Assembly: GCA_023231475.1 (NCBI GenBank)
Contig: JALJEE010002080.1
Span: 1 to 46,874 of the forward strand
Direction: 5' to 3'
From: Seison nebaliae
Lineage: Eukaryota
Length of the DNA: 46,874 nucleotides
Of the stretch, positions 8,045-45,548 are shown in pieces. Each line of letters begins with the position of its first letter. The stretch's first letter is position 1. Position numbers and translations under genes: made by a program. Below the pieces are notes generated by a model. It was not told where the DNA came from. It did no database searches and saw nothing but the letters and a program-made list of their open reading frames with translations.

Positions 8045-8240
8045 TTTTTTCTCATATTTGATTTTTGAAAGTTGTTGTCTTCTGTTACTTCTGTTTCAAA
8101 TAATTTTCCTTATGTTCTTTCATTTTTGATCAAATTGTTGTTATTTTTTTATGTTACTTACAAGTTATGTTGATGATTGAAAAATATTCCATAGAAGTTA
8201 AGTAATATAAAATTTTCTTTGTTTCGTTTTAAATAGATTT

Positions 8241-9578
8241 ATGCAAATGCATAACGAATTGCAAATAGGCTTTTTAGAAAATAGTGAAGAATTTGTTGAT
8301 TTGAACCGAATTTATTTTCCGACGAAATTCGGAGGTTTTCCTTCTTGGCTTCATCCTGAATATGTCCCACAATTCGGATGTGAGTCGTTGAAGTGCAATA
8401 ATTGTGGGAAGGTACGTCGTTTTCTTCTTCAAATTAATTGTTGTATGGAAACAAGAGAAGCGTATTATATGATGTATTATGTCTTCATTTGTTTGACCGC
8501 TTCATGTTGGAGAGATGAAAATGTGCGAAATAATGATCAAGACAACGGATCATCTTTAATAGTTTGTCTTCGAGGAATTCTTCCACAAGTCAATGAATTT
8601 TATAAGTTTACCGTTTTCCTTCTAACAAATTGATAATAGTCGTTTGAAGATATGATGAGAATCAACCAGAAATGATCGATGAAGAACTTATAGATGATAT
8701 TGAGGGAAGATTTTTTCACGAACTCTCATCCAGCGAGCAGGAAAAAATTCCAGCAGTATTGAAAAGAGTACCAAGAAAGAGAATGTGTGTTTTATGTGGA
8801 GTGTTCGAACAGACGACGGAACTATTCTGTTCGACAGAACACAAGTCTTATTATAGACGTTTCCATCCACATCGAAGTTTATTTCACACATCGAATTGAC
8901 ATTCTCTCATTTATTCATTCTCTTCTTACAATGTTAGATGAGGAACAAATGAATCAAACGTATTATGATGAAACTATCAACGAAATGTTATCAAAATTCA
9001 CATTTCCACCAACGGCCATCTCATTAACTGACGAAAATGGGAATAATATAAAATCTGATTTCGTCGATGAAGCGGCAAAAGGAGACGACGAAGAATCGTC
9101 GGATGAGGATGAAAATGTTTTCCTCCAGGAACAAATAGATAGACATAATAATGATCCGTCGGATGATGAAGAAGATGACAATGAAGATCAAACTGAATTG
9201 GTAGAAGATAACGAACTTTATTCTAATGATTTTACATTCAATTCGTTCATGCTTCAAATACGTAATACTCCGAACCAAATATTGAGGATTGGTGGGGATG
9301 AACCAATTTGGGTGTTCGATTCAAATAAATTGGAAAATATACCGAATTGTGTACGTTGTGGAGGTAGTCGCCATTATATATTTCAAATTTTACCTCAATT
9401 AATTAATTCGATTAATTTCGAAGAGAATGCTTCGATCGTAGGTGTTGATTGGGGAACAGTTGTCATATGTGTTTGTACAAATAGAACTTGTCCAATGAGA
9501 GAAAAAAATTCGTTCTCTTCATTTTATTCACACGAATATGTTTTCATACAATATCCACCTTCGCCAATTCAACAATAA
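8241..9578 (+). CDS. PDCD2: Programmed cell death protein 2 (PDCD2/TSR4 family uS5 chaperone)
   Basis: KFGGFPSWL, CNNCGK...FLLQ, a degenerate MYND-like region (CVLCG...FCSTEH) and the PDCD2_C domain (PNQILR...PIWV...IPNCVRCGGSRHYIFQILPQL...DWGTVVI). Inferred introns 8606-8649 and 8877-8937, both GTT...AG. Confidence 0.9.
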
Positions 9579-9814
9579 ATTTAAGTTTTCACTTCTCAAA
9601 ATTAGAAAGATTAGAATTATTTGAATTTTTTTTTATTTGTTTGTTGTGAAAATCTGAAAATGTTTTCATCAAATTGAAAAATGATAAGTGAACAAAATTA
9701 TGTTAATGTGTTAAAACGCTCCAACTGAAATTCTATAAAGAAAAAATGAATTTAAGAAATTATTTAAAATTTAAATTATTCTTTTTGTTATATTAATCTA
9801 ATAAGAAAATAATA

Positions 9815-10348
9815 TCACTTTTCTAATTGTTTATCTAAACTTCCATATTGATGAACAGTTAATGGATTCGCTTGAGTTTGAATGCCACCTAATGGAGTAT
9901 AACTGATGTGGGCGCCCGCCGCTATATTGAGTACTTCCATTTCTAAGGGAATCTTTATTAAGTGGAATGCCTTCAACTTACTCTCTTGCGAGACAAAAAC
10001 ACTTAAAATGTAATCGACTCCTTGACGTGATGTGAGGTCGACGATCAATTGTTTTATTAGATTGAGAGCAGATAATTGATCATTAGCGAATGGAAATGAC
10101 GAAATAATATGTCTCGCTTCTTGACATGTGATCATATTGAGTTTTCCTTTAATAATTTCCAAAGCATTTAATTGGTCATCAGTATGTTTGAACGTACTGA
10201 GCACATGAGAAGTTTGTTCAGCAGAAAATTTAAATTGACAATCATTTAATATTTGCATCTTATCGTTGGTATGAAGCATGTTTGTAAAAATCAAATTTTC
10301 CAGGATCCCATATTGGAAGATATTTTGATGGCTATTCAATTGTTTCAT
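9815..10348 (-). CDS. DUF4476-like repeat protein
   Basis: Two repeats of the type FSAEQTSHVLSTFKHTDDQLNALEII / ITCQEARHIISSFPFANDQLSALNLI, similar to DUF4476 (as in the PROSER1 N-terminus). Confidence 0.7.
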   Translation of the reverse strand: MKQLNSHQNIFQYGILENLIFTNMLHTNDKMQILNDCQFKFSAEQTSHVLSTFKHTDDQLNALEIIKGKLNMITCQEARHIISSFPFANDQLSALNLIKQLIVDLTSRQGVDYILSVFVSQESKLKAFHLIKIPLEMEVLNIAAGAHISYTPLGGIQTQANPLTVHQYGSLDKQLEK

Positions 10349-10453
10349 CCTTTATATTGTTTGAAACAAAAACTTATATGGTTGCTATGGTAATTAAATA
10401 AATAATGTGAGAAGAATTAAAATTCGAATATCGATTTAATGAATTTGCAATTC

Positions 10454-12646
10454 ATGCAATTCCTCTTCTTCTTTTTTTGTTCTTCAATCTATTCCGACGG
10501 TTTTTTTTATTTGTAATAGACTTTTTTTTTTGTATTTTCTATAAATTTATCAGAATGCTTCGAAAATACTAGTCCATCGGCCATCAAAAATGGAAAATGC
10601 GAACGAATTCGATTAAGAATCAAATTAACTTTTAAAAATGATAAAGTTTTTCGTTGTTAATTCTTGAAGTATACGTTTCTCACTTATTTTTTCTTAGAAA
10701 TATGATTTACTGAAAATTAGAGCAGAATTAACTAAAGTGATTGATGATGAATATGATACGAATTTTATTAAACCGATGAATATAATGAAAAACAAAAGTT
10801 TTCCACGAGAATATAATGGTGAAAGAATGATGAACATTCAATCTCATTATATGTTGAACGACATATTCGTATTAAGATTCGATGGGTCAATCGCTTTACC
10901 GAAAACTTTAAAATTAATGGTTAATTTTTGAGAAGGAGTTTAATTAAAAGAAATTTATGAATAGATTATAATAAAATCATTTGTTAGAGGATTACAATAT
11001 TTTTGGTGCAAATGGATGGAACCAAAAGCGACGAATTATTTCTTCTTCAATTCAACTTCTTGCGATAATCAAGGTACGAAAATAGATTCTTATCACAACA
11101 CAAGAAGTTTTCCATTCAAATTGGAAAGGATCATTATCAATAATCGCCTTAGAAATCAGTGATCAATATATCCGTACGAATATTTCAATAAAATTTCGTA
11201 AAAATGACATCCACGACAAATCGTTCAGTTTCAAAGAATTTTTTGATGTTCACCAAATTCCTAAAAAATGGATTAATGATAATTTATGGCAAATTAATTT
11301 CGCCGATACCTGCTTATTGTTTTGTTCGTCTTATAACAAAGTTCAATTGATTTGTTAATAATTTAACATAAATCTTAGAAAAAATTTTGCAGATCCGTCC
11401 GATATGAAGTACATTGTCAGTTGTTTGATGAGCATCCGTATGTGAAAACTAAAGAAGGTCATTATATTCTTCCGGAATTTGATGAGCAATCATTTCTTTA
11501 TATGAAGTGTGTGAAAAGTTATGAACAATATATATTTTATTCAAATTCTATGGGAATTCCTATTAGACAGGAACATGTATGATAAGATAATCTCATTTAA
11601 GAATAAGGAAGAGTATTGCGCTTATTCATTTCATGGGGATTATCATAGTAATTATCGATTGAAGCCGTTACGTCAATTTTTTACTTCACATATCGGAACT
11701 TGCGCTCGACATTGTACATTGAATAAGAAAGTTTCATTCTCTTTAACCTCTCTCATTTTCGAAAATCGAATTATTATCTTTGGTTGTTTTTGGTGAAAAG
11801 TGCCAAAGTTTTTCTGTAAGGCAAACTTGTGTTCTTCAAACAATTTTCACTTCGATGATTGAAGTGAAACATTATGAGAATGATAAAGATGATTGTCCAT
11901 GTTTGTTCTATCGAACAATCAACTCACCGTTACTAGATTCTACGACCGAAATAACTGGGCTATATTTGAATAAGAATGAAATAAGTTGGTTGTTTTTATT
12001 GCGTGAAATTTATTAATTAATTCAGATAATCATCAATATTGTGTGTCTTTGAACCGATTTTGTGATTATGTGCTGATCGATTTGATTCTCAAATTTAAAG
12101 TCATTCCCAAATTGAGTGCTCTTTATATGAGAGAAATTACGAATGGAAGTAGAAGTTTATTTTTCTTCAATTTCATCTCATCTTTCTCCTACAAAGCCAA
12201 TACCGTTTTCTTTTCGTATATTCCGAAAAATTATTCTCGATATTATGAAAGGACAAAAGTGTTGAGATATGAAGGACTTCTTCATAAACTTTGGACACCT
12301 AATAATACAGCTTTCGGAATTTATGTTACCAGTACTGGGAAAAAAGATCCTATTATCAAGCAAGTTCGTTTAAATTAAATTTTTTATTATCTACGAGATA
12401 ATTTAATGACTAGTTGAAGTATGCGAATATTATAACGAATCTTAACTTTACGTTTGATTGTAAGAAGCATTGCAACTTGAAAAATGAAAATGTATTGGTC
12501 ATTGAAAAAAAACATGGTAAATTTCAAGTGAGAAAAAGACTGTCGAGAGTTATTCATCCACTCTTATTCCCATTGACAACTCTCACGATCATTTTTTTTA
12601 GTATTCAAACACACTTAGAACGATTTTCGGTTTGGAAGGATATTAA
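10454..12646 (+). CDS. Unknown secreted Cys-containing protein with two PAN/apple-like modules, 11-12 exons
   Basis: One open frame results after removing GTT...AG introns 10500-10553, 10646-10697, 10920-10964, 11107-11152, 11341-11378, 11518-11566, 11731-11800, 11985-12025, 12155-12196, 12364-12413 and probably 12549-12601 (otherwise the stop is at 12677). It has a hydrophobic N-terminus MQFLFFFFCSSIYS and the motifs CLLFC...FCRSVRYEVHCQLF and CARHC...CQSFSVRQTCVLQ. Confidence 0.7.
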
Positions 12647-12711
12647 TCGAGAAAAAAATTTTTATAACTTACAATAATAAATTGTTAATTAAAAAATGAC
12701 AATTGAAGTTG

Positions 12712-15151
12712 TTATTCAATCTCGTCCGATGATGAATCGATGGAGACGATGTCATTCATATCAATATTCGCCATCATTTCGGTTATACCCGAAATACATT
12801 CGAGTTCTAAAGGATTCTCTAAAATTTTCAAAATGAATTCTTCACTTTCGCTCGCTAATTCCACAATTGACTTGGAACAAGCGATGCATTTATCATATGC
12901 CATGAGAACGGGATACCAGAATTCGTTGGAATAGAGTTGCCCTCGAATCTGATGAGGAATGGACAACGAGAGACAAGTTTCCGTATCCGTCCTTATCATT
13001 TCGCGATGGTCATGTTGAAGTTGACATAATGAAACTAATAATTCAACAGCCATCGAACTGGATATGGTACTTAATCCGGGTCTAGTCACAGTACATTGTT
13101 GATCTAGAGTTCGATCTTTTTGACTATTACTTGGTGCAACGACATCGTTACAAAAGTAACATCCTAATCGTTCACTTTCATTCTCCATTAGAACCGAATG
13201 TCCATGTCGAAGTATAAGAAATGTGTCGAATCCTAATGCAACTGTTATTGCTAACTGAAAATGAGATGGATTGATAACTGGAATGATTTGAAGGGAACTT
13301 TTTTTAGCATACTACAAAGTAGCGTGGGTAAATATCTTCCTTCACGACTATCCGTCAATAGAAAGATGACATCATGTCCTTCAATCAATTCTCTCAATTC
13401 ACGAATATTATTTAAAATTTCGGCTTGTTCAATCTGGGAATAATGTCCTGGCATTGGTATCTTCAATTGTCGCCCATTTATTGTATCGGAAGCAAATGGA
13501 ATAATTTTCTTGATGGCATCAGCTGCTGCCACTGATTTCTCTCGACGTTTCTCCGCGTCATCGAAAGTGAAAAGAGACTGTCTCGTTGGATTGGAATATG
13601 AGACGGTAGAATTGTCTACAAATGTGATATGTGTAACGCCCCAACCCTAATCCAATTAATGAATTTTCATAGAAAAAGAAAAGTCCAACTATCAAGTTTC
13701 TGGCGACGGAACAGCCTAATGTTCCCGATCCTAATAATAAGCATTTCAATGATTTGATCGATTCCAAGTTAAGAGTGGGAACCAATCGCCATTTCATTAA
13801 TTCCAAATTCAAATTAGTCGATGTCTTCGCCATTCTGGACGTAGAAGATTTAGAGAAATTAAAAGAAAATAAGGAACTGCAAAGGATCTAGTGATTTACT
13901 CATGTCTACCATTGTGCCAGCTAATTTTCCCTGAGAATTCCTTTCCCATCCGAAATATTTCGGTTCTTCAATAAACATCATGAAAATAGAAAGAAAATTG
14001 AAAGTTTTGGAATAATCCAAATAACGTGTGGGATATCTCCAATACCGTTAACGGATGGAAATATCTTATTGTTAGTATGGAAAAGTTAAACCTTTCTCCA
14101 AATCGATCAAGTCCAAATTGATTTGAATGTGGAAAATGGAAGAAGGAGAAGCGTCATTCGTTCCATTTTGTCTCAGAGCGAATAATTTCAACGAAATTTT
14201 ACCAGATAAACGTCTTGTCATTTTCCTATCAAATTAATTTCTTCTATTAATGAAGATGTCGATGGAAAGAATAACAAATATGAAATAATATTCATTAGCA
14301 AATTATTGGCAACCACACCAAAATAATTAGCGTGTGAACTTGTATCAACGAAACCGAAATATATCTCTGAAACTCGAATATTTTTTAAACTAGAAAAAAA
14401 ATGAGAAATTAGTCAAAAGAGAAACTTGACAAATTCTTGTTATGGAATGATGTGAATTGAAATAAATTGAATGATTTTTTGTCTATCAAAAAATATGATT
14501 GTCGTCGTTCGTATCGTTCTTCCCAATCGAAGAATTGTTTGTTGAATAAACTCATCTCCTTCTTACTCCATTTCTCTAATACATTGTATCGATTCAACAA
14601 AATTGCTTCATATCCATCCCAAACAAATGAGCAATAAGAAAACCAATAAAGAAATTGAAATTTCTTAATATTCTTCAAACATTTATTAGACAAATTAAAA
14701 AATGAAAATAAGAGAATTATGAAACTGAATAAAGTAGCAAAACGAAATTCTCCAAATCATTCGAAAGAATTCCTCTTCTCGATTTGTCAATTAACTAAGA
14801 AAAATTTAAAAATTAAAAATAAGTTAATTTAACCATCTCCAATTGTTGTTTTATCAGATGAATTTTATTTAATTTTTTGAAATTTTCCTTTAGGGAAAAT
14901 GGAATCAATTCTCCTTTACAAATATAGTCATGTTTCTGAATTGAATTACCCAAATCCTGAGTGAAACATTCGTCATCGATAAAAGCGAATGCTGGTAAAT
15001 TATCTCGTTGATCATTCACGTATTTCATGAATAGACGATGTCTCTCATCCTTCAACTTCAGTTCTTTCAGTTGCCAATCTCCAATTGTCAACCAAAAAGT
15101 CATATCGATACTCGATCGAAAAGGAATCATTTTGACCAATGACGGTTCCAT
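12712..15151 (-). CDS. ATG7: Ubiquitin-like modifier-activating enzyme ATG7
   Basis: [78 protein letters not shown] and the catalytic [10 protein letters not shown]. Inferred introns (donor-acceptor): 14833-14795, 14725-14673, 14425-14367, 14275-14226, 14091-13966, 13877-13835, 13689-13647, 13298-13255. Confidence 0.95.
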
Positions 15152-16407: not shown

Positions 16408-17254
16408 CTAATCCACAAAATGTGGAAGAAACAAAATAATTATTAGAAATGTTTATTATTCATAAGTTCTTCCTTTTAATTATTAAACGATTTTGAATTT
16501 GGCAGTTAGTGTTTTAATTGGGATTTTTAGAAATAAGAAGTTAATAGGATGTCAAGAATAAAATGGAATGTTGGAAAAGGAGTAAAATTTTCAAACTTTG
16601 TGTAAAAACACTTGTTCTTTTTAATAAAAAGGAATGGGTTATCTAATGGATTATTTATATAATGACCATTAAGAAGGGAATGTAAACGGATGTTGAGTTG
16701 ACCTTGTTAAATTGAAGAAGAGTTTTTTTGGGGAATGTATGTTGTTTAAATGAGTGAAACGGAAATAAATTGAGGGGTGGACAAAGAGTAAACGAATACA
16801 AAATGAATGAATGATGAATAATATTTATAAGATCAATTAAAGGAAGTGATCGGTTGGAATGTAAATAGTAAAATTAATCGAAATAAATTATTAGTTGTGA
16901 ACTGATTCATAATCGGATTGTATAGATTGAATCAGTTCATCCATTAACTGAGGGTAAAAACAAAAAATATAAATTTCTCGTAAATTTTTAAAAAAAGGAC
17001 TTCTGTTCAAACATTTGATAAAGAATTTTAGTTTAAATGGTTATTTTCAATCATAATCAATGATTATACACATTCATTTTCCGAGTATATCTGACGATGA
17101 GAAATATTTCTTTTTCATTCATCCAATATCGTTGTTGTTGTTGTTATGGCTGAAAGTTGTTATAATGAAAGAAGTATAACGACCAAACAAATTATTGGTT
17201 AAAAAGAAACAAACCGAAATAAAAATAAGAGGGGAATGATGAATGAAAAGAGAA

Positions 17255-20200
17255 TTAACTTTTGAATGAAATTTGACTATTATCATTGGAAGTCATTATT
17301 TCTTCCTGCGCTACAAACCGACTAGATGTAGTCATGTGAGATCTGACTGATTCATTCTTCTCATTCATGATCGGTTGGAGAAGAGACGAGTCATCCGTAT
17401 GGAATTCTTCGTTATTTGCAATGAAAGGAAATTTCATTTGATATCGTTCGAACAAATGAATGAAATCGTTGTATCGTTTCTCATAAGATATGGTATAGTC
17501 TTGCAATTCGTCGAAGATGCACGAATAATAAATATCAGATGGTTTCCCACCACCATTCGAACTACCGGGATCATATGTTGTAATATCTGGATATTCTTTA
17601 AAAAGACGAAGTATTCTCGAATAATTAGTGGCCGTTTCTCGAACTAATTTAGCGAGAGTTCGACCACTCACTAAACATCCGTCATGTAATGGACCGACAT
17701 ACGAGTAAGCACTATTCTTACTTGATGTACTGACAAATGATCGATCATGATTATTATTATCGAATAATTGATTTGGTCGATTGGTGATAGTAGAGTCTAA
17801 TATGTTATTTTTAGCAGTACTTATACATCCATTCATATTCAATTCATTAGGTAATTGATCGAGAGAGAATAGACCTTTATTCGTCGATCTATCAAATGAT
17901 GTATTAAATATTCGAACGATATCTTCTCGATCATAACGATGAATTCTTTTATTGACATGTTCACGAATATCGATCTTGATAAGATAGAGCTGTTCTGAAT
18001 ATTTCAAATAATCTTCCGATAATTTTTTCTGTTTCTCATTCTCATCGATTACTGTTCCACTATCTTCATAATTGGACTCTGGTGAATAATATTGATATAA
18101 TTCATAAATTGCCTCTCTCAAATTTCTCGACATCTTCCACCGATTCATATCGACTGAACAATCAATTAAATTGAGAGCATTCTCTTTCATAGGATGATTG
18201 ACCATTTCCATAATTTGCTCTAATTCACTCAATTCAATGTCAGTGCCATTTTCCTCATTTAAGGCATTCATAAAATATTCATGTAAATTGGACGTTCTCT
18301 TCATCGGATAAATACAAATGATCACGTCCGCCAATTCGGTGGGGAAAGACAATCGTTTAAACGTCAAATCATCTGGATATTCACACCAAACGATATGAAT
18401 GTCATCATTTCCTAAATGACTCAACTTCTTATTAAAGTATTCGGGTAATGTGGGCATTCGAGTAGATATATGAAATGCAGTCTCATTCATTTCATCCTCA
18501 AAAATGAGAATTCGTCGAAATTCTTCAACATCTTTGATGAAATGATTCATCGAAATTTCATCTTGATCTGTACGACGTCGATCATATCGACCGATATATC
18601 CATCATATTCCATCGCATCCACCCACCATCCTAAACCATAAAGGAAAAATTGGAAATCGGTCGATTCTTTTTCATTCTTCAGAATCTCGTTCTTCTCAAA
18701 GTCCTTTACAAACAGACAAGCAATTTTATGTTCTTCTTTCGTTGGTCGTTTCAAATAATTAATGAATTTCTGAGTGAAATCTTTCCACGAATCATTGGAA
18801 TATGTTGCGTCAACACTTCCATCGATCATATTCCATCCTGAATGATTACTGTTGGTCATCAATCGTAAATCATCGATTAATAATCGACGTAGTGATAGAG
18901 AGTCTCGACATAATTCTTCTCGTTTTTGAATGGAAGATAATTGATTCTCTTTCTCATACGTATTCTTCACTTCGAACGACATTGATCGAACAACATTCCC
19001 AGAGAGATCGAATGAATATAAAAGAAATGTATTTATGAATTCATCTAATTTCTCCATCGACTTCTCCACATTTAACCACGCGACTAAATGTTTTAGGAGT
19101 AAATTCATCAATCGTTCAGCTGAAGTATCTCCTTCGATATCGAATGGAAGAACTGTGGACGCTTCTATCCTTTCTTTTTCTTCTTCATTCTCTCCAATTC
19201 TCTCGTCATCATTTTTAAATTGAAACGATTCATTCGTTTTCAAACGGATCTGTTTGAGAATCGTATTCAAATCAATGAATGTCAATGACAAAGAAGAAAA
19301 ATTTTCTCGTGAAATTTTACTCTTCTCATTCTCTACTAACGAATGGTCGGAGGACGATGGAGGAGTGAGAACGAGATCATTAAAAATAGATCGGAAAATA
19401 TTTCCTTGTCTTTCTGTCGATTGTTGATTAGTGAAGGGTAATGAGAGATTGAACAGATTTCCAATATTTAACGATCGATCCTTTAACGACGATTCGAACA
19501 AATTATCGATAATCGTCGATGAGTATTTCCGTCTAATTTCGTCAGATAAAACTTTCATGTTATTCACTGAATTTTCCGTTAGGAAATGTGTGGTCCATTC
19601 AGTAGACAATGAATTGTAGAGTTGATTGAGATACAAAAGGAGAATTGTTGAAAATAATCGATTGAGAAATTCGCTCATTAATAATTTATCGGATTTGATG
19701 GATCTATCCATATTCTTCGATGTTTTCGATTTCCATCGATTGATGAACATTTGAAGATTATCGTTATTTTTCTCGTTATTAATCGAATAAAGTTTAACGT
19801 CGTTCGCTAAAATGATGAGAAGTAGAGTTCTTTGTTGGAAAGTTTTCTCTTTAATAATGTGGAAGAATGCGAAGATTATATTCGATTCAAATGAAATAAA
19901 TTGACGTTTCGAAATCGTTTCATCTGATGATAATTGCAAGTATTCCATTAAACGATTACTACTTCGTCGAGCGACTAATGAGGATTTTCTTAAAATTATT
20001 TCCTTCAATTTCCCATTTTGAACATTTTCGTAAATTCTCTTCAAGATCGAAACGGTTTCGTGGAAGATTGGTTTGATATCGTCGTTGTCGATTTGAGAAA
20101 TGAGTTGCATAAATTTCTCGTTGTCGATAGTAGAAATTGTGTTATCGAAGAAACGGTAAAAGGTATAATGGAGAAATGGATGGAAGCGAATCGGTTTATT

Positions 20201-21276
20201 ATTCTTTGTAGTCGATTCTTCGATTTGAATGATGGCATTTGTGATATCGATCAGATATTTCTCGTTAAACAAATATGAATGTTCATATCGATAGATAAAG
20301 AGGATGGTATCTATCAATTGATTGGAAATGAAAATGATATGTTTCTGAGATGTTTTAATAATGAGGAGAAGTTGAGTAATAATGAATCGGAAAAGTAAAT
20401 TGAGAATCTCTTTAATTTGAATCTCACCAAACATCGATCGAATACTCGACAAAGAGAATTGTTGTTGATGTTGTTCAGAAACGGTTATGGTTTGAACTCG
20501 TCGATGAATATCGATCCATTGTCGTAAGAGGAATAAGAGTGAATGACAACAGATCATAGTCGATGTTTCATCGTCGACGAAGATGGTATGATAAATGTTG
20601 ACGAACGAATCGATAATAGAAGTGAAATGTTTCAGTTTCTCTTGTACTCGAACTGTGAACGATTTGAAAGATAATTGATAATAAAACGATTGTTGAATTA
20701 ATAATAATTCTTCCATAGCCACAATAACTAGACAATTCATTAAACGACATTTTCCTTCGATCAATTGTGATTGACATCGATCGATATGTTCAATAAAGAA
20801 ACTCTCTCGATCACTTTTCAAATATTTCGTTTTAGTTGACGAATTTGTCTGATAAGAGATGAATAATTGAACGAATCTTATAAATTGATCAATTCCACTA
20901 AAGGCCAATAATGTATCGAATGATAATGAGTTGAGAGATCGAGTTAAATTTAACGAATCGGCTGATCGACGTTCCTCATATTCCTCTTTGACTTCATCGG
21001 CTAAAGTCTGAATATTTCCTCCATCCAAATCTTTAATATAACATTCTTCTGGTTTTGGCAAATTCGGTAAAATTGTCTGATTGTCAATTCGAATGGAATT
21101 GTTCAACGAATTCACCATTAAATGTTCATAAATATCGATTGAAATGAACAGATTTTGGGGAATTAACAACTTGTTGACATCTCGTAATTTATTAATTAAT
21201 TCACTTAATTCTCTCTTGGTATTCTGATGGGAAATGGGAGAATTAACGATAATTTGTTGACTCGCTTTTATCGTCG

Positions 21277-21307
<31 letters not shown>

Positions 21308-23304: not shown

Positions 23305-23336
<32 letters not shown>

Positions 23337-26300: not shown

Positions 26301-27217
26301 TCTCCATTGAATTCTCAAGAACTTTATAGATATAAAAGTTGAAACAATTGAAATTCAAAAAAACAATAACGTCACGATGAATATTCGTTAGAATTAATTT
26401 GACTGTCAATACACATTCAATTGCTTGAATATCATTTATACTGGAATTGGATTCCTTCCGATCTTCCGGAATGAAGCATTGAGTAGAATTAAAAAATTCA
26501 TCTTCAGAAAAATAATTGGAAATTGAAATGAATAAAAGAGAAAGAGAAACGTTTGTAAAGATTTCCGAATAGTTTATGTTCTAAATCATGTGCTTCATCT
26601 CCCAGAATCAGATACCAAATAAGAAATAATCGAATCGCATTCTCTCGAATCTACAAATCGACAATAATCTTCGAACGAATTTGAAATTTATCTAACACTT
26701 TTCTGGTTAGAGAAGGAGAGCATCATATGGAAACATTCTCTCAATTGTGTCTCCAATTTCCTCTCATAAAAATAATCTGGATTGTTCACGAATAATAACT
26801 TAAATGAAAATAAGTTTTTTTTTTTTCAAATTAAGAATTGAAAGAAAACTTCCAATAAATCAAAAAGATTTTTCGCTTCATCCTCGTTATCTTTTGAAGG
26901 TATTAAAAGAGAAAATAAACAAAATAGTTGAATAATCAAAACTTTTACTCGGTTTATTTGTCTGTAATCGTTCGAAGATATGTCTGAAAATTCCAATTAG
27001 ATCAATAATTTCCGATTCAATCTGAACTCGCCGTTGACTTTTAGATAGAAGTTCTGGGAAATTAGAAATTTAATTTATTTTTTGGGTAATTAAATGAACT
27101 TAAAAATCGTACATAATGTTTGAGACGATAAGAATTGTCTCGTTTGGATAAGGCTTTATTCTTCTCGCTTTCCACTTCCTTCAACTTCCCCGTTTTCTTT
27201 AATCGATTACTCTTCAT
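17255..27217 (-). CDS. RALGAPA: Ral GTPase-activating protein catalytic alpha subunit, about 3100 aa
   Basis: N-terminal RLKH and IRENAIRLFLIW motifs. C-terminal Rap/Ran-GAP domain HKIACLFV...GLGWWVD...FHISTRMP...KKLSHLGNDDIHIVW...PTELADVIICIYPMK...GPLHDGCLV. Inferred introns: 27099-27054, 26942-26891, 26849-26799, 26696-26651, 26550-26502, 26370-26322, 26149-26101, 25711-25663, and about 23177-22951. The 3' end may extend further by splicing. Confidence 0.9.
21278..21313 (-). repeat. (CAA)n coding microsatellite encoding poly-Gln
   Basis: Run of ttg repeats on the + strand, translating to HQHQQQQQQQQQQ in RALGAPA. Confidence 0.9.
23304..23348 (-). repeat. (GAT)n coding microsatellite encoding poly-Asp
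   Basis: Run of atc repeats on the + strand, translating to DDDNDDDDDDDDDD in RALGAPA. Confidence 0.9.
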
Positions 27218-33208: not shown

Positions 33209-36200
33209 TCAAAATTTAAATTCTTCAAACTTTTTACATATCAATGAAATTTCATCTTCTGCGACGAATTGAAATTTTTCTGATAAATCAGAACTTCTTC
33301 GACTATTCCCTTCGCTGTATGTGTTCATATTATTAACAACACTACGATATTGAGAAAAATTTTCATTATTGAAATTGGTATCGATCGTTTTTCCAGTATC
33401 ATCATAATTGATAGGTGGTTTTGAGGTATTCGTCAAATTCGACACATCTATTTCATCGACATCATTTTCCTTGTCTTTTAACTTTCTCATTTGTTGTAAC
33501 GGAGTAATTGAAGATGATTCTTTTCCATCATCGTTGGAAATTTCGTCAATTGATTCTTTTCTTGAATCTGTCGAATGATTAGAATTTGACTCATCAATTT
33601 TTCTTGAATTGTCATCGGTTTTTCCATCCGCATTACTACTATTCGAATTTTCTGATCTTCTTCGATTTAACAAATTTTCATTCAATAATGATTTTGTGCA
33701 AGAATCTGTTAATTTCATTATAAATTGTTGCATCATTTCTTTTATTGAGCTGTCAGAAATATCATTATTCGAATGATCATCGATTGACGTTTTTCTTGAA
33801 CTTTCCACAATTGAATATTCACTAATTGATCCACTTCTGGAAGTGTTCGAAGTTCCTTTAATCGACTGGTCATCATTCAATACATTATCAATAATTTCTT
33901 GATCTTCTGATTCTCCTCTTGAGTTTATTGAAGTTCCTTCATTCGAATCTTTATCATTTTCTGATTCGTTTCTTTCATTTTCCCAATTTTCATTAATTTT
34001 TCCATTTTTTAAAGTTTCTTTGTTGAAATTCTTTTCACTAGATTCTTCTCTAATATGTTCCTCAATTTCTAAATTTGATTCATTTCCAGAAATGGAATGG
34101 TTCTCATCCATTGATGATTTTCTTGAACTTTTTGAAGTTCCATTATTTGAATATTTTTCTTCTGATTCGTCGTTCGAAATATTTTTATTAGAATTCTCCT
34201 TAATAGATTCTTTTCTTGAATCGTTTTTCACGTTTTCCTCATTTGCTTGTTTTGTTGAAATTTCTTCGTTTATGTTCTCGTTAATTGATTGTTTTCTTGA
34301 ACTTCTCAAAAGTTCATTAATCAGATGTTCTGAATTTGAATTAACTTCATTTGATTTTTCTTCGTTTTCATCATCTGTCATCAATACTGATTGATCATAA
34401 GGAGATAGTTGAAAGTTGAGAGAGTCATCATCAACATATTCTTGTTGAGGTCGTCTAGCGAAGATGATCTGCATAGCATAGATTGAATCTTTCATTCGAA
34501 TATCATTCATCAATTTATCTTTGTATTTATCTTCCTCTGATTTGTGAACTTCGCAGAGAACTTCACTAATTCTTTCGAAAACGAAACTTCTGTCGATCTG
34601 ATATTGAAGAAAATACTTTTGGTGTTTAATTGGGAACCATTCGGGAATATCAGAACAATAATTTTGCATATTCTCAATTCCAATCAAATGTGTAACATTG
34701 AGGAATTCATAGAGAACGATTGATGAGAATGATATATCGTTTTTGTCAATATCTTCATCAGAATGATTATCATCAACAGAAACATTCAATTGAAATTGAT
34801 AATAATCATCACTTCTAATTCTTTGGATGATTATTCTCAATTGACGATATTCCTTTTCACTCATCGTAAATTCTTCCATAGTTTTCCCAATGTCACTTGC
34901 GATTATTTTACAAATATTTCCAATAATTTCACAATATCTTCTAGGCAATTTTCGTTCCTTACACAAATGATATATATATCGAATATAACAAAACTTATTA
35001 ATCGCTTCCATTCCAAATAAATGACGTTGGAGATATTTGATGGAAGTTATTTGCATATCTGACATTTCCTCGTCTCTTCTGATGATCTGGTGGAACAATT
35101 CCACTCCAATCGTCTCCATAAGTAAGATGTTGATGAAAGTTTCATCTAATATTAAAAAATAAATTTTAAAATTTTTTTCAAAAACCAACTAACAATGTTC
35201 ATAATCGATTGGTGATGTGATGAAGGATGGGCAGAAATGATAAATTTTTATATTCTCATTCTTCAATAAACGAATTAAGAAGGCGAATAAATCAGTTCGT
35301 TCTCGCAAAAAATTTAATGGATGCATATCATAAAACCAGTCATCATGTTGATTGACTGTTCTTATATCCAAAAATTCTTTCACAACTTTTTCCATTTTCT
35401 TCATAAAACGTAACTGTTGCCTTTGGTAAGAGAAGGGTCCGATAATGAACTTTAAAGACGAAGGCCAATACGTTGCTTTGGTTACGGCAATTTGATACGA
35501 GAATATGCAACTATTAATTATACACTCCTCTATGTAATGTCGTGTGGTGTCCTCTCGTGCAGAATTCTTTCTTTTCCATCCATTCACTCGTATCGATTCT
35601 AAATGAAATTTTGTAAATCCTTCATTTCCAAAGGCTAAAATATAAAGATCGTCCGTAGTACTATTATTTGTCGCGAGTAGATCATACGTTAATTGTACGT
35701 GTGGACACCTTTGTCTAATAATCTTTTGACGACTTTCTCTTTCCGAATGCAAACATACTTTGACGATATCACATTTCTTTCCCAACTTCCCATGAGCGAG
35801 AGAATAATCGAAGTAATTTTGAATTGATTTTGATCGATTCATTGAATCCGTTGTAGTTTTTATTTCATTCTTCTTATACAACAAATTCCGCACCATAAAC
35901 CATGCTTGATTATCGATGGCGATATGAAGAGGTAATTGTAACGACTGGAAAGAGACATATAAATAATAAAAATGCAAAACTTCTAGAAATATTTTAACGA
36001 AAAAATTGGAGAAAATTTTTTGAAAAAAAATCAATAAAATTGAAGAGGATACGTGAAAGAGTCTTGTGACAAATATACGTGAATGGTTAAGAGAAAGGAA
36101 ATGAAAAAAAATCAAACTTTCGATGGTAAATTGAAATAATGATCGATGAGATGGTCAATGGCATTTTCGATGGAATCATCTGTCATAATTGGATGGATTT

Positions 36201-36753
36201 TCTTCAGAATTTGTTTCATCTGTTCACGATTGGAAAGAAGATTCATATAAAATTTGAAGCATTTCTTTGAGGAATATTTCACCATAAAATGCATTGCATT
36301 CCATCGAACCATTTCATGGAGATGTGGTGGTGAATCTGATTCACTATTGTACAAATATTTTGGATTTTCTCTCACTAACCATTTAATTTTCTCACAATTA
36401 TCATCAATAATATATCCACGAAAATTTAAGAAATGAGACAATTTTAAATTGGGATAAATTATTGGATTATCTATTCGAATTCTGTTATGGTGTTTTGACG
36501 ATGGTTTCGCTGGAGATGAAATGATATTTGATAAGAATCCAGAATCTTCATTTGACACTGGATTACTTTCATATGTTTTCAACGATTCTTCCGCTTCTTC
36601 TTTATTGGCATGAACTGTGAATGTTACATTTTTTGGATAAGTTTTCAAATCTTTTAAATTCTCAACAATATGAGGAAGATTCTTATTAATATTCTCATTA
36701 TTTCCATGGTCATTATTCCAATGAATAGAATAATACTTCTTATTCATCGTCAT
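33209..36753 (-). CDS. ANKLE2: ANKLE2/LEM-4-like protein with caulimovirus-VI-like domain and ankyrin region, and a long acidic low-complexity C-terminus
   Basis: YYSIH...FTVHANKEEAEESL; LVRENPKYL...DSPPHLHEMVRWNAMH; IDHYFNLPSK|SLQLPLHIA; IIGPFS. Inferred introns 36117-35945 and 35193-35146. Confidence 0.75.
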
Positions 36754-37053: not shown

Positions 37054-39296
37054 TTATCGACGATAATCACGTGATCTAGAGTGTTCATATGTTGAATCTC
37101 GACGATTGTCTCCATGACGACGAGAACGATCTCGTCGATTTTTATGAGATTCAGGTGAATCATTTCGATGTCGATGTCTATTATGAGATTTTTCTTTTGG
37201 ATGAAGATTTTTCTTGTATCTTCGACTTCTCCTCTCATCTTCACTGTCGAAATCGTCATTCTCATTGAAACTTTCTTGATAATTAAATTTATCACTTCTG
37301 AAAACAATTGAAATAAAATATATTCATATAAATGATAAAATTTTTATGAAAAATTTGAAACTTTTTCGATTGTTGTACTGAAGATTTTTTCACTTCATTC
37401 AAAAACGTTATCATTCCTGTTGGATCGTCTACTTTCTTCTTTTTATTATCATCCAACTCTTTCTTTTCTATTTTCCGTTTCTCTCTATGAACATTATCTT
37501 CGTCATCTGATGATTTGTTTTTACTTTTCATCCTTAAATCATTTGCTGATCTCTCAAATTGTACAGGTCCATTTCTTGTTAAATCAGCGTCTGCTCCACT
37601 AAAATGAGTTTCACTCACAAATCTAATAGAATAATTTATAATAATAATTTATTTGAAAAAATAACTTTTTCTCATTTTCGATTCTTTCGATTTCATCAAC
37701 AATCTTGTCAACATTCGATTGTTTCGTTGGACGATAAATGACATTCGCTGCATTCGTCTCCTTCCTCCATGGTTCATCATAGACATTATAGGCGTCTTCA
37801 TCACCAAAACCAGTTGATATTCCTTCGTTCATTGCAATTAATCTTGTATCGAAATCATCTTCTTTCTTCTTTTGGACATGTGGTAGGCCAAGTGCAATCT
37901 GTTCACTAATATCTCTCGTTTTATTTATGGCATCGAATTTCTTCCCATATTTTGGATTATTTCTCTCTAATGCCAATTGTTGTTTCCTTTCACGTTGTTT
38001 TTGTTTTCGGAGTAGATTTCTTCTTTTTTCATCTTCCTCTAATTGATTCTTATCTTTCACTTCCTCATTATCTGACGATGAGAGATCACTTGATATTTTC
38101 TTCTTTTTCTTCTTCTCATAATTAATATCATCATCATCCATTTCGTTTCGTTTCTTCTTTCGAATATCATCATCATCATCATTATCATCATCATCAGATG
38201 AAGAGGACGAAGATGAAGATGAATCGCCATAATCTGTAATTTTCCCCCGATTCGATTCATCATAATTCGATGTTAATTGTGCTCGTTGATTTCGTGCATT
38301 CTTCGCTAATCGTCTCAATTGATCTTCTTGAATATCTTTCTTCTTCTGATCCAACATCTCTTGTCTCTTCATTCGATATTCTACTTCTTCTCTCACCTTC
38401 TTATCCGCTATATCTAACGCATTCGTCATTTGAAATAATTTCTCAGAACATTTACTCGAAATTAATCGACGACCATCAGCAGCAATACGTTTATCCAATG
38501 GAATAGTGTAACCACGAGCATTCTTCCAATTAGAGATACATGGCGGAATCTTCCAATCCTGTTGTTCTTTCGCTGTAATTTTACGAGGTGGCGAATGGAG
38601 AACTGGAGCAGGTGGTGATGGTGGTGCTGCAGGAATTTTATCTGTTAATTTAAATCGTGGTGGAGAAAGAGGATCACGTTGCACGTTCGAAATTCGAACA
38701 ATTCGTTGACTACAATTTGAATTGAAATTTACACCGTTCTGAATTGGAGTATATCGATAATATGAAGCATCTGTTCGTTTATCTGCCAATTTTGTTGGGA
38801 GGACGTTCGATCGTTTCTCTTCGACAATACTGTCCAATTTCTCTTTCGTTTTCTGAGTAATATCTTCTACTACATCTTCCGATGGTCTCAACAATTCACT
38901 TTCATACAATTCATCATCATCAATCAAATCGTTCTTTGTTGCCATATCAGAATATTTCGAATAAATTATCTTATTCTTATTCGAAGATGATCCTTGTCGT
39001 AATAACGTGTCATATTTAATATCACCTGAAGCATCCATCTGCAATGATAGTGCATTGGATGATGCTCCTCTTTTCGTTTCACCCATTCTCAATGGATATT
39101 GTAATTCATCAATCTCTGGAAATGCTCCTCCATCTCCAAAATCTTCCATACATTTCGGTTTCCAATTCTTCCGATAACCATATGGTGGAATCTTCGAATG
39201 TTTCGGTTCGTCAACATCTTCCTCATCTAAAGTCAGAATATATTTGTTCTTCTTACTACTGTACACCGGATTAGGCAAACGTTCAGTTAACGACAT
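37054..39296 (-). CDS. SNW1: SNW domain-containing protein 1 (SKIP/Prp45), a spliceosome component
   Basis: PPYGYRKNWKP, DFGDGGAFPEI, DPLSPPRFK, PPSPPAPVLHSPPRK, WKIPPCISNWKNARGYTIPLDKR, RDISEQIALG, YNVYDEPWR and GPVQFE. Inferred introns 37665-37623 and 37361-37298; the last exon is R/S/D-rich. Confidence 0.95.
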
Positions 39297-40044: not shown

Positions 40045-40098
40045 GATGGAAATATTCTAGAATTTTTTATTTAAAAATTTATTTCGCTTTAAATTAAA

Positions 40099-42837
40099 TT
40101 AATTTTTCAATCCAGAGAAATTTTGAGCATTTGACAATTTCATTATTTGATCTATCGAATGTGCCACTGCTTCTTCTGAAAAAAAAGAGGAATTATTGAA
40201 TAGATGTTGAATAGAAAATGAACCTAATAATGTCAATCGATATTGGAAGAGGAGTGATTTCAATCCACCATCATTCAATACATTCTTATGGAATAAACTC
40301 TTATACGCATTCGACAATGTATCAATCGATAAACATTCAGGACTCAAGAATAGATGTGTTTCCTTCGTCATTTCCAAACGAGATCGCTGAGTAGTAATTG
40401 GAGCGATTTGATAGAAGAATACTATTTCATTCTCATTTAATAAAATTCCGTCCTGTATGAGTAAATCTTGCAATTCTAATGCGAAAAGTTTAGCGTCCTT
40501 CTTTCCGTTATTTAACATTTCCATAAATTTCTTTCGTTTCTCTTTTCTGAGAAGAGATTCTCTTCCATTTTTCAAAGTCATTTCTACGATCTTATAAACA
40601 AACTATAATTCGCAGAAGAATTCGAATGGAGAAAGTGAAATAGACGAACTTTATACGACATGAGATAAGAGAAGAAAAATTGGAGGAAATTTGGTAAATT
40701 TTTCTTCTCGTAAACTTTCGATAACTTTTCAAATTTCTTATAATTCAATTGATAATTTCGAAGTTTCTCTCAAAAAATTTAACTTTCTTTTGTAATTCTA
40801 CACTTCCTGAGATGAAATCGTTTTCAAATAAATTTAATAATTCTCCATAATTTCGGAACAAGTCGCCACCCATTAATAACGACGCTTCTAAAAAAGCGGC
40901 ATCGACCAATAGATGAAGAATTTGATTTCTTTAATGGTGAAATTGAAGAAATTTTGAGATTTGAATGAGAACTTGTAATGAAGAATTTTGATGAAACTCT
41001 CACAATATGGAAATGCGTCTTCTTTCGTGATACGACATTCTTTCAACAAATTCACAATTTTTGGAATTTTATTCAAATTTCTATTGGCTGCTCGAATAGT
41101 AGTAATATTTTCATTCATTAACAAGAAAAGATCATTATTCATCTTTATAAGTTGATGAAATGATTTATCGATATCGTCGATATTTTTCACTTCACAATCA
41201 GACAGAATTGTCGACAATTTTGGGAATTTGACGGAATTATTGGAATTGTTGAGAGGAGAAAGTAGTTGAATGAAATTAATGAAGATTTCTCGGAATTGAA
41301 GTGTTTGTTGAAGGAATTGGGAATAATTGATAGAGTTCAATTGATTGTTAATTTTAATATGATAATGGAAATTTTGATGTGTTTCTATTAATAATTTATT
41401 CTTTTTATGAATATGAATTAAATCATTTTCAACATCATCATCATCATCAACTTCATTCGGTAATAAACATTGATGAGAAAGAATAAGATGTTCATTAATC
41501 TCGTTAGAATTGTGAAGATGTTGAAGGATTTTGTGATGGAATAAAAGAAGGAATGATAAAGAGAAAATGGTCGTTCCACTAATTCGAGTACCGATTTGTT
41601 GTTGCCAAATGATTGTTTGGGAGACATCATTAAGAATGGGAGCGAGTAACGGACATTTATCCAAACGACACTGGACATGTCTAGAGATGATTAAAATGGA
41701 ATAATTGATAATGGAGAAAATTTGAACTTTGGACGGAAATTAAAAGGAATTTTCGAACATGTGATTATATCTTTCAAATGGATAGGAGAATTGAAATTAA
41801 AATGAATATTCCCATAATCGTTGAATAATAATGAGAAGATAGATAATAAAGCAGAAATCGTTTCTTTCGGTTTCTTATTTCCCAACATTTCATTTGCATA
41901 AAGATTCTGTTCGAAGATTCGATCGAAACTAATAGAGATTGGAACGAGTGCAATATCATAACATTCATTTTGTAAAAACAAATCGATACAAGTCGATAAT
42001 AAACCGATTTTTGGGGACAATGATTTGCCCGTTCGACTTCGAGTGCCTTCGATAAAGAAACAAAATGGAGCGAGATTTTTCTTCATAATTTGTCTTGTCA
42101 CACACTCCAATAACGTTAAATAGAGACTACCACAGTAAATGGACATCGTCTCATTTTGTATCAGATGTAAATTTTGAGATTGTTGACGATAATCGAGAAA
42201 ATTCGAAAAATGTTCTTCTTTCATCTCAGGGAATTGTTTATCGAATCCTCTTTTAATAAAGAATGCTCCACATTGTTGCATTAGAGTGGAGAGGAATCCT
42301 AATGATAAGAAATCATTCGCTGCTGCTATTAATGGCATTGGTAATCGTAATCGATATAGAACGAGAGTTAACAACAAAAAATCTAAATAAGATCGATGTG
42401 TTGGTAAGTAGATGATGGGACAATTGCGTCGTTGCAATTCACGAATCTATGAGGAAATTTATGAAGTTTGTCCACATAGAAATTTCGAACTTTAAATAAA
42501 TTCTCTTCATCGATCTCTATACGTTGAAACCAGCAACGACAGAATAGTTGAAAAGAAGAAATGAAAGTTCGGAGGACAAATGGTGAAAATGGCAGGAACA
42601 TTTCTTTAACTAGTTCGTCGATCTTCCTCCAATTCTCCTTCGCTTTCTTCTCATCTCCATAGAAAGAAATCTTTTTAATTCATTGAAAATTGGAGGAAAG
42701 TTAATGGAAACTAATTTAATCAATGCTTTCATTCGATCATCAGTCTTCACTGCTGATATGATTTCCATCACTCCAAATCGAGAAATTGTCGTCATTTCTC
42801 CACTATCTCGATTTTCATATCGCAAGAGATCGATCAT
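40099..42837 (-). CDS. GNPAT: Dihydroxyacetone-phosphate acyltransferase (GNPAT-like, GPAT/DHAPAT family)
   Basis: Acyltransferase motifs PTHRSYLDF, GAFFIKR, FFIEGTRSRTGK, VPISISFDRIFE...LGNKKPKET and YKNQILHL. Inferred introns: 42711-42671, 42490-42447, 41727-41681, 40972-40929, 40783-40737, 40649-40603. The 3' end is uncertain. Confidence 0.85.
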
Positions 42838-43682
42838 ACTTAATTTAAATAAACACTATTATTATAAAGTTATTATAAGCTATTATTCAAATTTAGCGTT
42901 CATAATAGGAAAAATTCAAATTTTAATTTTTTTTAATCAGAAAAATTTTAATTTTTTTTTTTTAAATTAATAATAGTTTTAATATTTTAGTTAATAGTAA
43001 TTAATAACTATAGAAAAAAAAATTTTTTTTTTTCGATCGAGTATCCATTGATTAAGATTGATTGTCAGTTAGATTCATTTAATTTGGATATGGTGTATAT
43101 ATTCATTCCTATGTTGTTTATATATGATGAAGTTTGTTAACTGATGAAAAGAACATGCGAATATTATCGCAGGATATAATTGACTTGTCATGAAAAAATG
43201 GGGATATGAAATATTTTCCAAAGGAAATCAAGTTAAACTGTCAAAAGATTCGGAGAATTTGCAATTTTCAATAACATCGGCATCTTTTTTCTCTGAAAGA
43301 GAGACATGGTGAAGCATGTGTTTTGTATGTTTTTGATGGTACAAACTCATGATAATATTACGAGTATGAAAAAATGAAATATTTTATTTGATGAGAAACA
43401 AATTTAATAGTTTCAGCTTAGAATATGAGCTCGATCTCTCGATGATGGTAATTGAAATCGACTGGTCGTTTTCTATAACTGTTTTGTTTTATCACCAATT
43501 ACTTTGTGATTCAAAGTTCTGATTAATAATTGTCTGATCTTTTCATTAGTTTTTTTTTGCTTTGTTTTTCTTTGAATTTTCTGTATAAGCGAAAGTGGTG
43601 AAAGGTAGAAGATATGCAATTGTAAAAACGAAAGACAAGTCCGATAAATTTTATTGAAGTTTTCTTCTCTCCTATCTATAGT

Positions 43683-44606
43683 ATGGGTTGTGATAATCGA
43701 GAAGATTTCCATTTCGTACCACGTATTGTCAACGCTGGAATTGCCGGAGTTATTGGTGTTGCTTGTACATTTCCTTTAGATTTAGTGAAGACTCGATGGC
43801 AAAACCAGGAGATTGGTGGGGGAAAAAAGATTTATTCTTCGTTGAGAGACGCATTAAAGAAAACGATTAGTAATGAAGGAATACGTGGATGTTATCGTGG
43901 CAGTGGAGTGAACATGCTCCTCATTACACCAGAGAAAGCGATCAAACTTGTCGCTAATGATTATTTCCGATATTTCTTAACTACTCCCGACGGTTGCTTA
44001 CCATTTTATCGGGAAGTGATGGCTGGTGCTGGTGCCGGTACCTGTCAAATTATTGTCACTACACCAATGGAATTGTTGAAGATTCAATTACAGGATGCTG
44101 GTCGTGGAGGAACGATGAATCGATCACAACAAAGTGCTTCGAAAGTTGCACTGAAATTAATTCGGGAGAGAGGTCTCACCGGTTTATATAAAGGAACTGG
44201 TGCCACTTTCCTTAGAGATTGCACTTTCTCTATGATCTACTTCCCTTTATTCGCCAATTTGAATGCATTAGGAAGACGACGACCTGAAGCACCAGATGAA
44301 ACGATTTTCGTCGATTCATTCTTTGCCGGTTTAGCTGCTGCTACTTGTGGCAGTTTCTGTGTCACACCGTTGGATGTGGTGAAGACACAATTGCAAAGTC
44401 TCAATCGATTAAAAGGTGAAAAAACGTTTAATGGAGTGTGGGACACGATCAAACATATTTGGCACCATCAAGGTTTCCGAGGTTATTTCAAAGGCGGTGC
44501 AGCAAGATGTATGGTAGTTGCACCGTTGTTTGGAATAGCTCAATCAATTTACTATATTGGTATTGCAGAAAAGATTTTTGACTTCTTTACACCACAACCG
44601 TCATGA
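43683..44606 (+). CDS. SLC25A22: Mitochondrial glutamate carrier (SLC25A22/SLC25A18-like)
   Basis: Three carrier signatures (PLDLVKTR, PMELLKIQ, PLDVVKTQ), plus LITPEKAIKLVANDYFR and APLFGIAQ, which are typical of glutamate carriers. The CDS has no intron. Confidence 0.92.
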   Translation: MGCDNREDFHFVPRIVNAGIAGVIGVACTFPLDLVKTRWQNQEIGGGKKIYSSLRDALKKTISNEGIRGCYRGSGVNMLLITPEKAIKLVANDYFRYFLTTPDGCLPFYREVMAGAGAGTCQIIVTTPMELLKIQLQDAGRGGTMNRSQQSASKVALKLIRERGLTGLYKGTGATFLRDCTFSMIYFPLFANLNALGRRRPEAPDETIFVDSFFAGLAAATCGSFCVTPLDVVKTQLQSLNRLKGEKTFNGVWDTIKHIWHHQGFRGYFKGGAARCMVVAPLFGIAQSIYYIGIAEKIFDFFTPQPS

Positions 44607-44921
44607 CGAACATTTTCACTTTAGTTTCACTCTTTCATATCTCCCAATTAATTATAGTTTTTTTATAGGAATTTATTTATTTCTCTCAAATACATTTTAT
44701 GGAAATTGTTCTTTTCGCAGAATGTTAACTTTTTATGAATCTAATCTCCGATTTCTTTTAATTATTGTAACATTTTTAAGATTCAAAGTAATTTCTTCTT
44801 CTTGCGATAGTGTCAGCTAAAAGATTCATTAAGCATTTCTTGGGTTTTCTAATGAAATTATTTGTCTAATAAAAGTATTTATTTTATTCGATTAGATTAA
44901 TTTTCTGATTTTCCGAAGAGA

Positions 44922-45548
44922 ATGACTAGTAACTTCTTGACAAACATCTACTCAATTGCCATTTATTCAAAAGAGAATGCCCTTGTTCATTTGGCAGTTG
45001 GAGAGAACCAAAATGAAGAAATGGCCTACGAATTCGCATATGCCGCATTAGATATGCTAATCTCCCATGAAATTAATGAAAGATCCATTTTAACGGCCCA
45101 ACTTAAGAAAGCTTCAGTCTTATCACCTAAATTCCTTGGTCTTCTTTTCCCTGTGTTTCCCAAGAAAATGTTATTCTATTTTTATGATTTTAATTCACTT
45201 CAAATTTCTTTTATTAGATATGGATATCTGTCACAGAACGGTGGGAAGGTTGTAATTGTTTTTGATGAATATGAAATTCAAGGCGATCGGATATTATCTG
45301 CTTCGCAACTAACTGAACGTGAAGCTCAATTAAGTATGAAAGCGAAAGATTATCTTGAGAAGATTTCGGATAGTTATCAAAAATACATTGTTAATCCTAA
45401 CATCAATCGAACACAAACCATTGAATCGTCACAATTCTTAAAAAATGCTTTAGGTCAAAATTTTAAGTATAAAGATATTATGACAAACCATATTGAAAAT
45501 TATTCCATATCTCCCTCACTCTCTAACTTGTTGAAAGAAAGAATTTAA
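44922..45548 (+). CDS. TRAPPC2L: Sedlin-family TRAPP subunit (TRAPPC2L-like)
   Basis: IAIYSKEN, AALDML, FLGLLFP...K-I|YGYL...KVVIV and YQKYIVNP. One in-frame 48-nt intron at 45170-45217. Confidence 0.75.
   Translation: MTSNFLTNIYSIAIYSKENALVHLAVGENQNEEMAYEFAYAALDMLISHEINERSILTAQLKKASVLSPKFLGLLFPVFPKKMLFYFYDFNSLQISFIRYGYLSQNGGKVVIVFDEYEIQGDRILSASQLTEREAQLSMKAKDYLEKISDSYQKYIVNPNINRTQTIESSQFLKNALGQNFKYKDIMTNHIENYSISPSLSNLLKERI

Follow-up and report, generated by a model that had tools for sequence, protein, structure and literature searches.

Genes and Introns of the Window

This study concerns the 5' splice sites (donors) of Seison nebaliae, an epizoic animal of the rotifer-acanthocephalan clade with compact genes and a genome of 44-46 Mb (two strains; PMC8351084; published reports are cited here and below for their accessible portions). 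The window, i.e., the whole stretch of DNA that was analyzed, comprises 46,874 nucleotides (nt) of contig JALJEE010002080.1 (assembly GCA_023231475.1) and contains 31% G+C. Examined at the DNA level, the inferred introns of this contig were confirmed to start nearly all with GTT, which places T (U in the transcript) at the third intron position (+3).

On the forward strand, a PDCD2-like gene (8241..9578) with a Pfam PDCD2_C match carries two introns, 8606-8649 and 8877-8937, both GTT..AG and both called by a composition predictor. A gene of unknown family (10454..12627, forward) has up to 11 introns, with donors at 10500, 10646, 10920, 11107, 11341, 11518, 11731, 11985, 12155, 12364 and 12549, all GTT, the last picked by eye. 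Its product of 550 residues is hydrophobic at the N-terminus, contains 21 cysteines and is possibly secreted. No Pfam family scored above the cut-off in the exons scanned, and an Atlas search with one exon returned low recognition (1300) and bacterial matches, which were not used.

Six genes lie on the reverse strand. ATG7 (12712..15151) has eight introns, with donors at 14833, 14725, 14425 (rival GTC at 14430), 14275, 14091, 13877, 13689 and 13298, placed with a profile of 66 homologs; a gene model for Seison ATG7 was looked for and not found. RALGAPA (17115..27217) has ten, with donors at 27099, 26942, 26849, 26696, 26550, 26370, 26149, 25711, 23177 (alternative 23435) and 17259; the NCBI isoforms P0262-P0264 of SNEBB_000616 map onto it letter for letter, and it contains a Rap_GAP domain and matches the RALGAPA2 chain 9qwp_A (E 3.8e-20). 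The predicted protein is 3037-3123 residues long, compared with 1899 for that solved chain. Its isoforms differ in the choice between GTT donors at 23435 and 23177, which are separated by 258 nt, and by a tandem TAG/CAG acceptor (22951/22948).

The TM9SF2-like gene (29686..32113), onto which NCBI protein P0121 maps, has seven introns (donors 31990, 31870, 31265, 31108, 30531, 30172 and 29845); its spliced model forms one continuous match to EMP70 (positions 1-516 of 517, 612 bits), and no solved structure was found for P0121. The adjacent gene (33209..36753), with introns 36117-35945 and 35193-35146 given by P0121 and the composition predictor, had been named ANKLE2 in an initial annotation of the window; that name was not confirmed, as no Pfam family matched at E 0.01. 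SNW1/SKIP (37054..39296, SKIP_SNW) has two introns (donors 37665 and 37361), located by a profile-guided alignment blind to +3. A GNPAT/GPAT-type acyltransferase gene (40099..42837; Acyltransferase and GPAT_C domains) has six or seven introns called by blind predictors, with donors at 42711, 42490, 41727, 40972, 40783, 40649 and possibly 40223. Finally, a Sedlin-family, TRAPPC2L-like gene on the forward strand (44922..45548; Sedlin_N, 27.4 bits) holds one possible in-frame GTT intron (45170-45217).

Support from Gene Models, Homology and Sequence Boundaries

The NCBI proteins SNEBB_000616 and SNEBB_000617 map onto the window, and the 21 distinct donors that their models contain all read GTT. 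The P0121 model of SNEBB_000617 contributes 10 of 10 mapped donors, and each of the three SNEBB_000616 isoforms has 10 of 10, drawn from 11 distinct sites. Two of these isoforms differ by a tandem acceptor one codon apart, which hints at transcript evidence behind the models. In SNEBB_000617, a 1251-nt GTT intron (33294-32044, reverse strand) joins the ANKLE2-like gene to TM9SF2, skipping a stop codon and the TM9SF2 N-terminus; this fusion junction is likely an annotation error.

Homology provides a second line of support. A hidden Markov model (HMM) of ATG7 was built from 66 proteins, and 49 GT/GC..AG variants of the gene were scored against it. The best variant used GTT at all eight junctions: it was ahead of non-GTT rivals by 6-23 bits at four, three junctions had no non-GTT rival, and at junction 3 GTT beat GTC by only 0.7 bit. 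The best GTA rival lost by 14 bits to the donor chosen by homology. Splitting the 126-nt ATG7 intron into pieces of 27 and 60 nt was set aside by eye as too short. For SNW1, five gaps were called by the profile, two of which are GTT introns; the other three are non-GTT and fall within low-complexity stretches whose frame stays open without splicing. Two control loci have a GTT intron at the same profile column as the first SNW1 intron.

Sequence comparison delimits several of the same introns. In two sequencing runs (X1 and X3), low-depth contigs about 83-86% identical to the window were compared with it over 8150-14700. Their match breaks off at 8608 in both runs and also at 8881, 11738 and 12158, in every case 0-5 bases past a GTT, and one contig ends at 11986, one base short of +3. 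Two further runs (X6 and X7) yielded no matching contig, which speaks neither for nor against the introns. The first two breaks fall in the PDCD2-like gene and the next two in the gene of unknown family. These breaks mark intron boundaries and inform little on +3 alone. The likeness of these contigs to the window is confined to exons, with many differences three bases apart, as in a divergent second lineage.

The initial annotation had listed 37 intron starts, and all of them sit at frame-compatible GT..AG junctions in the named genes, with +5G (10/37) and -1G (5/37) correctly counted. Eighteen are backed by NCBI models (RALGAPA nine, TM9SF2 seven, the gene called ANKLE2 two), eight by the ATG7 HMM, two by the SNW1 profile, and the two PDCD2 donors by the breaks at 8608 and 8881. 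The six GNPAT donors rest on the blind predictors, which agree on five, while one gives the sixth. The TRAPPC2L intron is the weakest: it is in frame and contains no stop codon, but only the composition predictor calls it. For RALGAPA, the nine introns listed hold, whereas a tenth (17259-17150, GTT) and the alternative GTT donor at 23435 had been missed.

Predictors Blind to +3 and Chance Controls

Two gene predictors were run blind to the +3 base. A longest-frame dynamic-programming (DP) predictor placed 39 of 45 donors at GTT, and the composition predictor 36 of 48. Both agree on 27 donors, 25 of which are GTT; the two shared non-GTT calls are the ATG7 GTA rejected by homology and the ATG7 GTC near tie. 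In the gene of unknown family, all nine DP donors are GTT.

Chance yields far fewer. When the true donors were knocked out, DP chose GTT in 17 of 46 cases (Fisher p 1.2e-6 against 39/45), and on antisense strands in 34 of 90, so that false donors are GTT in 37-38% overall. Across the window, 41-42% of GT dinucleotides are followed by T, and inside introns 34/56. The chance figure of 7e-12 given in the initial annotation is therefore overstated, because introns are T-rich and donors selected by hand do not count as independent. From the intronic frequency one obtains 0.6^37 = 6e-9.

AT-rich control loci do not share the pattern. Six metagenomic SNW1 loci, near copies with 32-34% G+C and introns of 47-62 nt, served as controls. 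By the profile method 3 of their 44 donors, over 11 positions, were GTT, and by the crude DP 10 of 42; two further control loci gave 3 of 11. The sole position that is GTT in both covering control loci is that of the first SNW1 intron of Seison. The control loci may be bdelloid-like; the SNW1 tree did not place them, as long branches meet. Within the 27.6 kb gene span of the window, GTRAG shows no sense-strand enrichment (19 sense, 17 antisense), and GTAAGT has no sense occurrence.

Donor and Acceptor Signals

The signal was characterized on a set of 50 hand-assembled introns, in which GTT was taken where evidence tied. The exon end is rich in A (29/50 at -3, 33/50 at -2 and 32/50 at -1), with -1G in 8/50. 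The dinucleotide AA precedes 27/50 donors and 24/200 exonic GTT trinucleotides (p 1.5e-9), and the enrichment persists in the tier backed by NCBI models or homology (12/29; p 3e-4). Within the intron, +4 is T in 21 cases, A in 15, C in 12 and G in two. G at +5 (12/50) exceeds the 6.8% G background (p 1e-4) and defines a minor class, and +6G (2/50) stays at background (p 0.87). Five donors read GTTAG, none preceded by A (p 0.004, post hoc), and a pyrimidine at -1 is found in 5/12 donors with +5G versus 5/38 without (p 0.046, post hoc). About 30 of the 50 have neither -1G nor +5G, and only two introns start with GTTTG, so that the strict Entamoeba GUUUGU does not apply. The donor code is thus (A)AA/GUU (slash, exon-intron boundary) plus a minor NN/GUUAG class. 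The earlier statement that the +3 purine is replaced by U is supported within the window by the NCBI models, the ATG7 HMM and the blind predictors; that the other positions are relaxed holds for +4 to +6 but not for the A-rich exon side or for +5G, which lies above background.

The introns have GT..AG ends that restore a conserved frame, as for U2-type introns, while the purine at +3 of the GURAG consensus is lacking. U12-type donors follow a strict RTATCCTT consensus; a U12 origin was rejected, as +3 is T rather than A in 50/50 and +4 to +8 are free. The 3' ends are T-rich and no branch motif stands out (YTRAY in 16/50 versus 20.2 in shuffles). At acceptor position -3, T (23) is followed by A (14), C (12) and G (1), so that AAG acceptors are common (14/50) and C is a minority. 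An apparent excess of A as the opening base of the following exon (33/50) was dropped after comparison with positions following exonic AG (431/721), and avoidance of exonic AAGTT was not seen (25 vs 28).

Intron size is narrow as well: 44/50 introns measure 38-64 nt, the size of many gaps (about 42-90 nt) in published S. nebaliae transcript mappings (PMC8351084, file 2). In parts 1 and 400 of that file, gaps of 40-90 nt are mostly entered as deletions rather than introns, and the aligner behind it may have rated these donors poorly. Among the matches listed from 19,906 rows of its GMAP transcript table, no contig fits the exon/intron lengths or coordinates of the window.

Other Features of the Window

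Genes for NOC2 (5681-8041, forward), a DUF4476 protein (9818-10348, reverse) and a mitochondrial carrier (43683-44603, forward) are free of introns. Three single-exon proteins had no exact counterpart in the protein collection. An 861-nt open frame (15599-16459, reverse) between RALGAPA and ATG7 has no Pfam match and possibly represents an exon of a gene missing from the annotation. Broken frames occur at 2386-3361 (reverse), 4404-5156 and 46348-46872 (both forward); by eye, we take them to resemble reverse-transcriptase, transposase and RNase H pieces of mobile elements. A hairpin within repeat-like DNA (2259-2364) scores 43.5 bits to Rfam MIR9408, whose gathering score is 90, and is probably a transposon end.

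An Altered U1 as the Proposed Reader

A purine at +3 ranks among the least variable features of animal donors, and a standard U1 small nuclear RNA (snRNA) would mispair at both -1 and +3 of AA/GUU. Introns that start with GTT after AA exon ends thus suggest that recognition of intron starts by the splicing machinery likely follows an altered code. The donor shift is real and probably genome-wide, an extent extrapolated from one contig. Under the proposed mechanism, to which we assign a probability of roughly 0.5, the donor signal of ordinary major-spliceosome introns has moved from AG/GURAGU to (A)AA/GUU and would be read by a U1 with an altered 5' end. Nucleotide 6 of U1, opposite +3, would be A in place of U, and nucleotide 9, opposite -1, possibly U in place of C. 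With such a U1, pairs would form at -2, -1, +1, +2 and +3, whereas +4 to +6 would stay unpaired. Once the donor is handed over, loop 1 of U5 would bind the A-rich exon end, and U at +3 would be tolerated by a U6 whose ACAGA box is unchanged. The minor NN/GUUAG class (5/50, none after A) would instead depend on U6, in line with the two donor classes described in other animals.

Parts of this scheme have precedents. In Entamoeba, GUUUGU donors coexist with a U1 that reads ACAAAC for ACUUAC and with an unchanged U6 ACAGA; 97-98% of donors are GUUUGN, U1-C is much diverged, and U1 is also changed in Mastigamoeba (10.1101/2022.06.08.495308). Pairing of U5 loop 1 with exon-end A residues and a two-class donor model are also described (PMC8283771, PMC11732430).

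Several observations weigh against this proposal. Regarding the pattern itself, an NCBI predictor trained on GTT would repeat GTT, and the likely false 1251-nt intron is also GTT. The blind predictors made 6 (DP) and 12 (composition) non-GTT calls; in the gene of unknown family, the second predictor agrees on only four of the nine DP donors and calls four non-GTT ones. At 7/50 junctions, namely those with donors at 11518, 12155, 12549, 26942, 25711, 31990 and 40783, an in-frame GTA or GTG rival lies within 30 nt. Exonic GTA stands at 0.65 of expectation, compared with 0.87 for TA generally and 0.92 for GTT, a depletion beyond TA avoidance that suggests GTA could still act as a donor. As for the mechanism, no snRNA occurs in the scanned parts of the window, so all steps beyond the sequence pattern are inferred. 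The change at U1 nucleotide 9 rests on the hand-built set of 50, and with loose +4 to +6 positions a five-pair U1 duplex would be weak, unlike the strict donors of intron-poor Entamoeba. Moreover, yeasts, Thecamonas and Micromonas keep a standard U1 despite atypical donors (10.1101/2022.06.08.495308), as does the tunicate Fritillaria (PMC13326754).

It is because of these last lineages that a different reader deserves consideration, as a genuine if doubtful possibility: the GTT code would be real, U1 would be standard and its pairing of little weight, with U5 loop 1 and U6 (its G facing U+3) choosing the donor at hand-over, short introns being defined across their length, and U1-C, LUC7, SNRNP27K, METTL16 or PRP8 being changed or lost. 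A at -3, -2 and -1 suits U5 loop 1, the absence of A before the five GTTAG donors (post hoc) agrees with it, and an unchanged U6 might form a better pair with U than with a purine at +3 (10.1101/2022.06.08.495308). On the other hand, one published lineage with fixed +3U, Entamoeba, did alter U1 (same source).

A partial artefact is improbable. In this case, a moderate bias would look stronger than it is because introns are rich in T and GTT was picked where several donors fit the frame; many true donors would be GTA or GTG, or the contig would be atypical. The frequency of T after GT inside introns (34/56), the GTA/GTG rivals, the 12 of 48 non-GTT calls of the composition predictor and the use of junctions read from the DNA of a single contig all lend it something. 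Against it stand the 37-38% GTT among false donors, the low counts in AT-rich controls (3/44 and 10/42), the 14-bit rejection of the best GTA rival in ATG7 and the lack of sense-strand GTRAG enrichment.

The remaining two explanations are weaker still. Pairing of a standard U1 one base downstream, with GUU-N-N-GU donors, draws on the five GTTAG sites and is very hard to credit: the required +6G is at background, its rarity excludes a shifted GTAAGT, and a standard U1 pairs with a mean score of 4.98 in register, compared with 5.06 after a shift of one base. Least credible is a recent transposon-like intron family (introner) carrying GTT at its end, which the common start triplet and narrow length range might suggest and which is excluded because the introns neither share sequence nor carry inverted ends or duplications (pairwise similarity at shuffle level, maximum 34 versus 30-39; inverted ends of 6 nt or less; 40/50 junctions without direct repeat), one SNW1 intron position also being common to distant control loci.

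Significance and Comparison with Known Systems

A literature search by title and abstract, with most subscription papers outside reach, found no report of a fixed +3U in an animal. In the accessible text of the Seison genome paper (PMC8351084), the sole passage on a splice site concerns homeodomain recovery; the accessible part of the Seison lamin paper contains no "GTT", and the supplement row consulted gives no Seison intron sequence. Seison is named in the supplement of a minor-intron survey (PMC10639083). The shift described here is apparently the first of its kind in an animal. A broader and distinctly more tentative proposal is that the reader of 5' splice sites was recoded in Seison, as the first case among animals: U1, changed opposite +3 and -1, would read AA/GUU across tens of thousands of introns, standard GTAAG donors would no longer be used, and the switch would have occurred in an intron-rich genome. 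Current models tie such a switch only to intron-poor genomes. Among the reports consulted, the best-documented donor-U1 coevolution is that of the intron-poor amoeba Entamoeba (10.1101/2022.06.08.495308). An intron-rich animal with fixed +3U and an A-rich exon end would show that an entire splice code can change while most introns are retained. The U1, U5 and U6 sequences of the public 44-Mb genome would separate U1-first models of donor choice from those based on U5/U6 hand-over. In addition, gene-prediction and alignment programs that were trained on standard donors will probably handle S. nebaliae poorly.

Among known systems, Entamoeba resembles Seison in having +3U in nearly all introns, GT..AG ends and short AT-rich introns; however, this amoeba is poor in introns, 88-90% of its donors are strict GUUUGU, and its U1 change is documented in sequence (10.1101/2022.06.08.495308), whereas Seison is an animal with about five introns per multi-exon gene, free +4 to +6 positions (+4 T 21/50, +5 G 12/50) and an A-rich exon end. 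Donors of animals and plants fall into two classes, AG/GUNNN (U5 type) and NN/GURAG (U6 type). The Seison donors are similar in that the majority class carries exon-side information and a minor +5G class does not, but differ in having A rather than G at -1 and U at +3 in both classes (PMC11732430). Fritillaria borealis is likewise an animal whose splice signals depart genome-wide from the standard consensus, Seison being known from one contig. In that tunicate, the GT/AG rule is broken, the U1 and U6 motifs are kept, and U2AF and N6-methyladenosine (m6A) marks are changed (PMC13326754); in Seison, by contrast, GT..AG is kept and a new base is fixed at +3.

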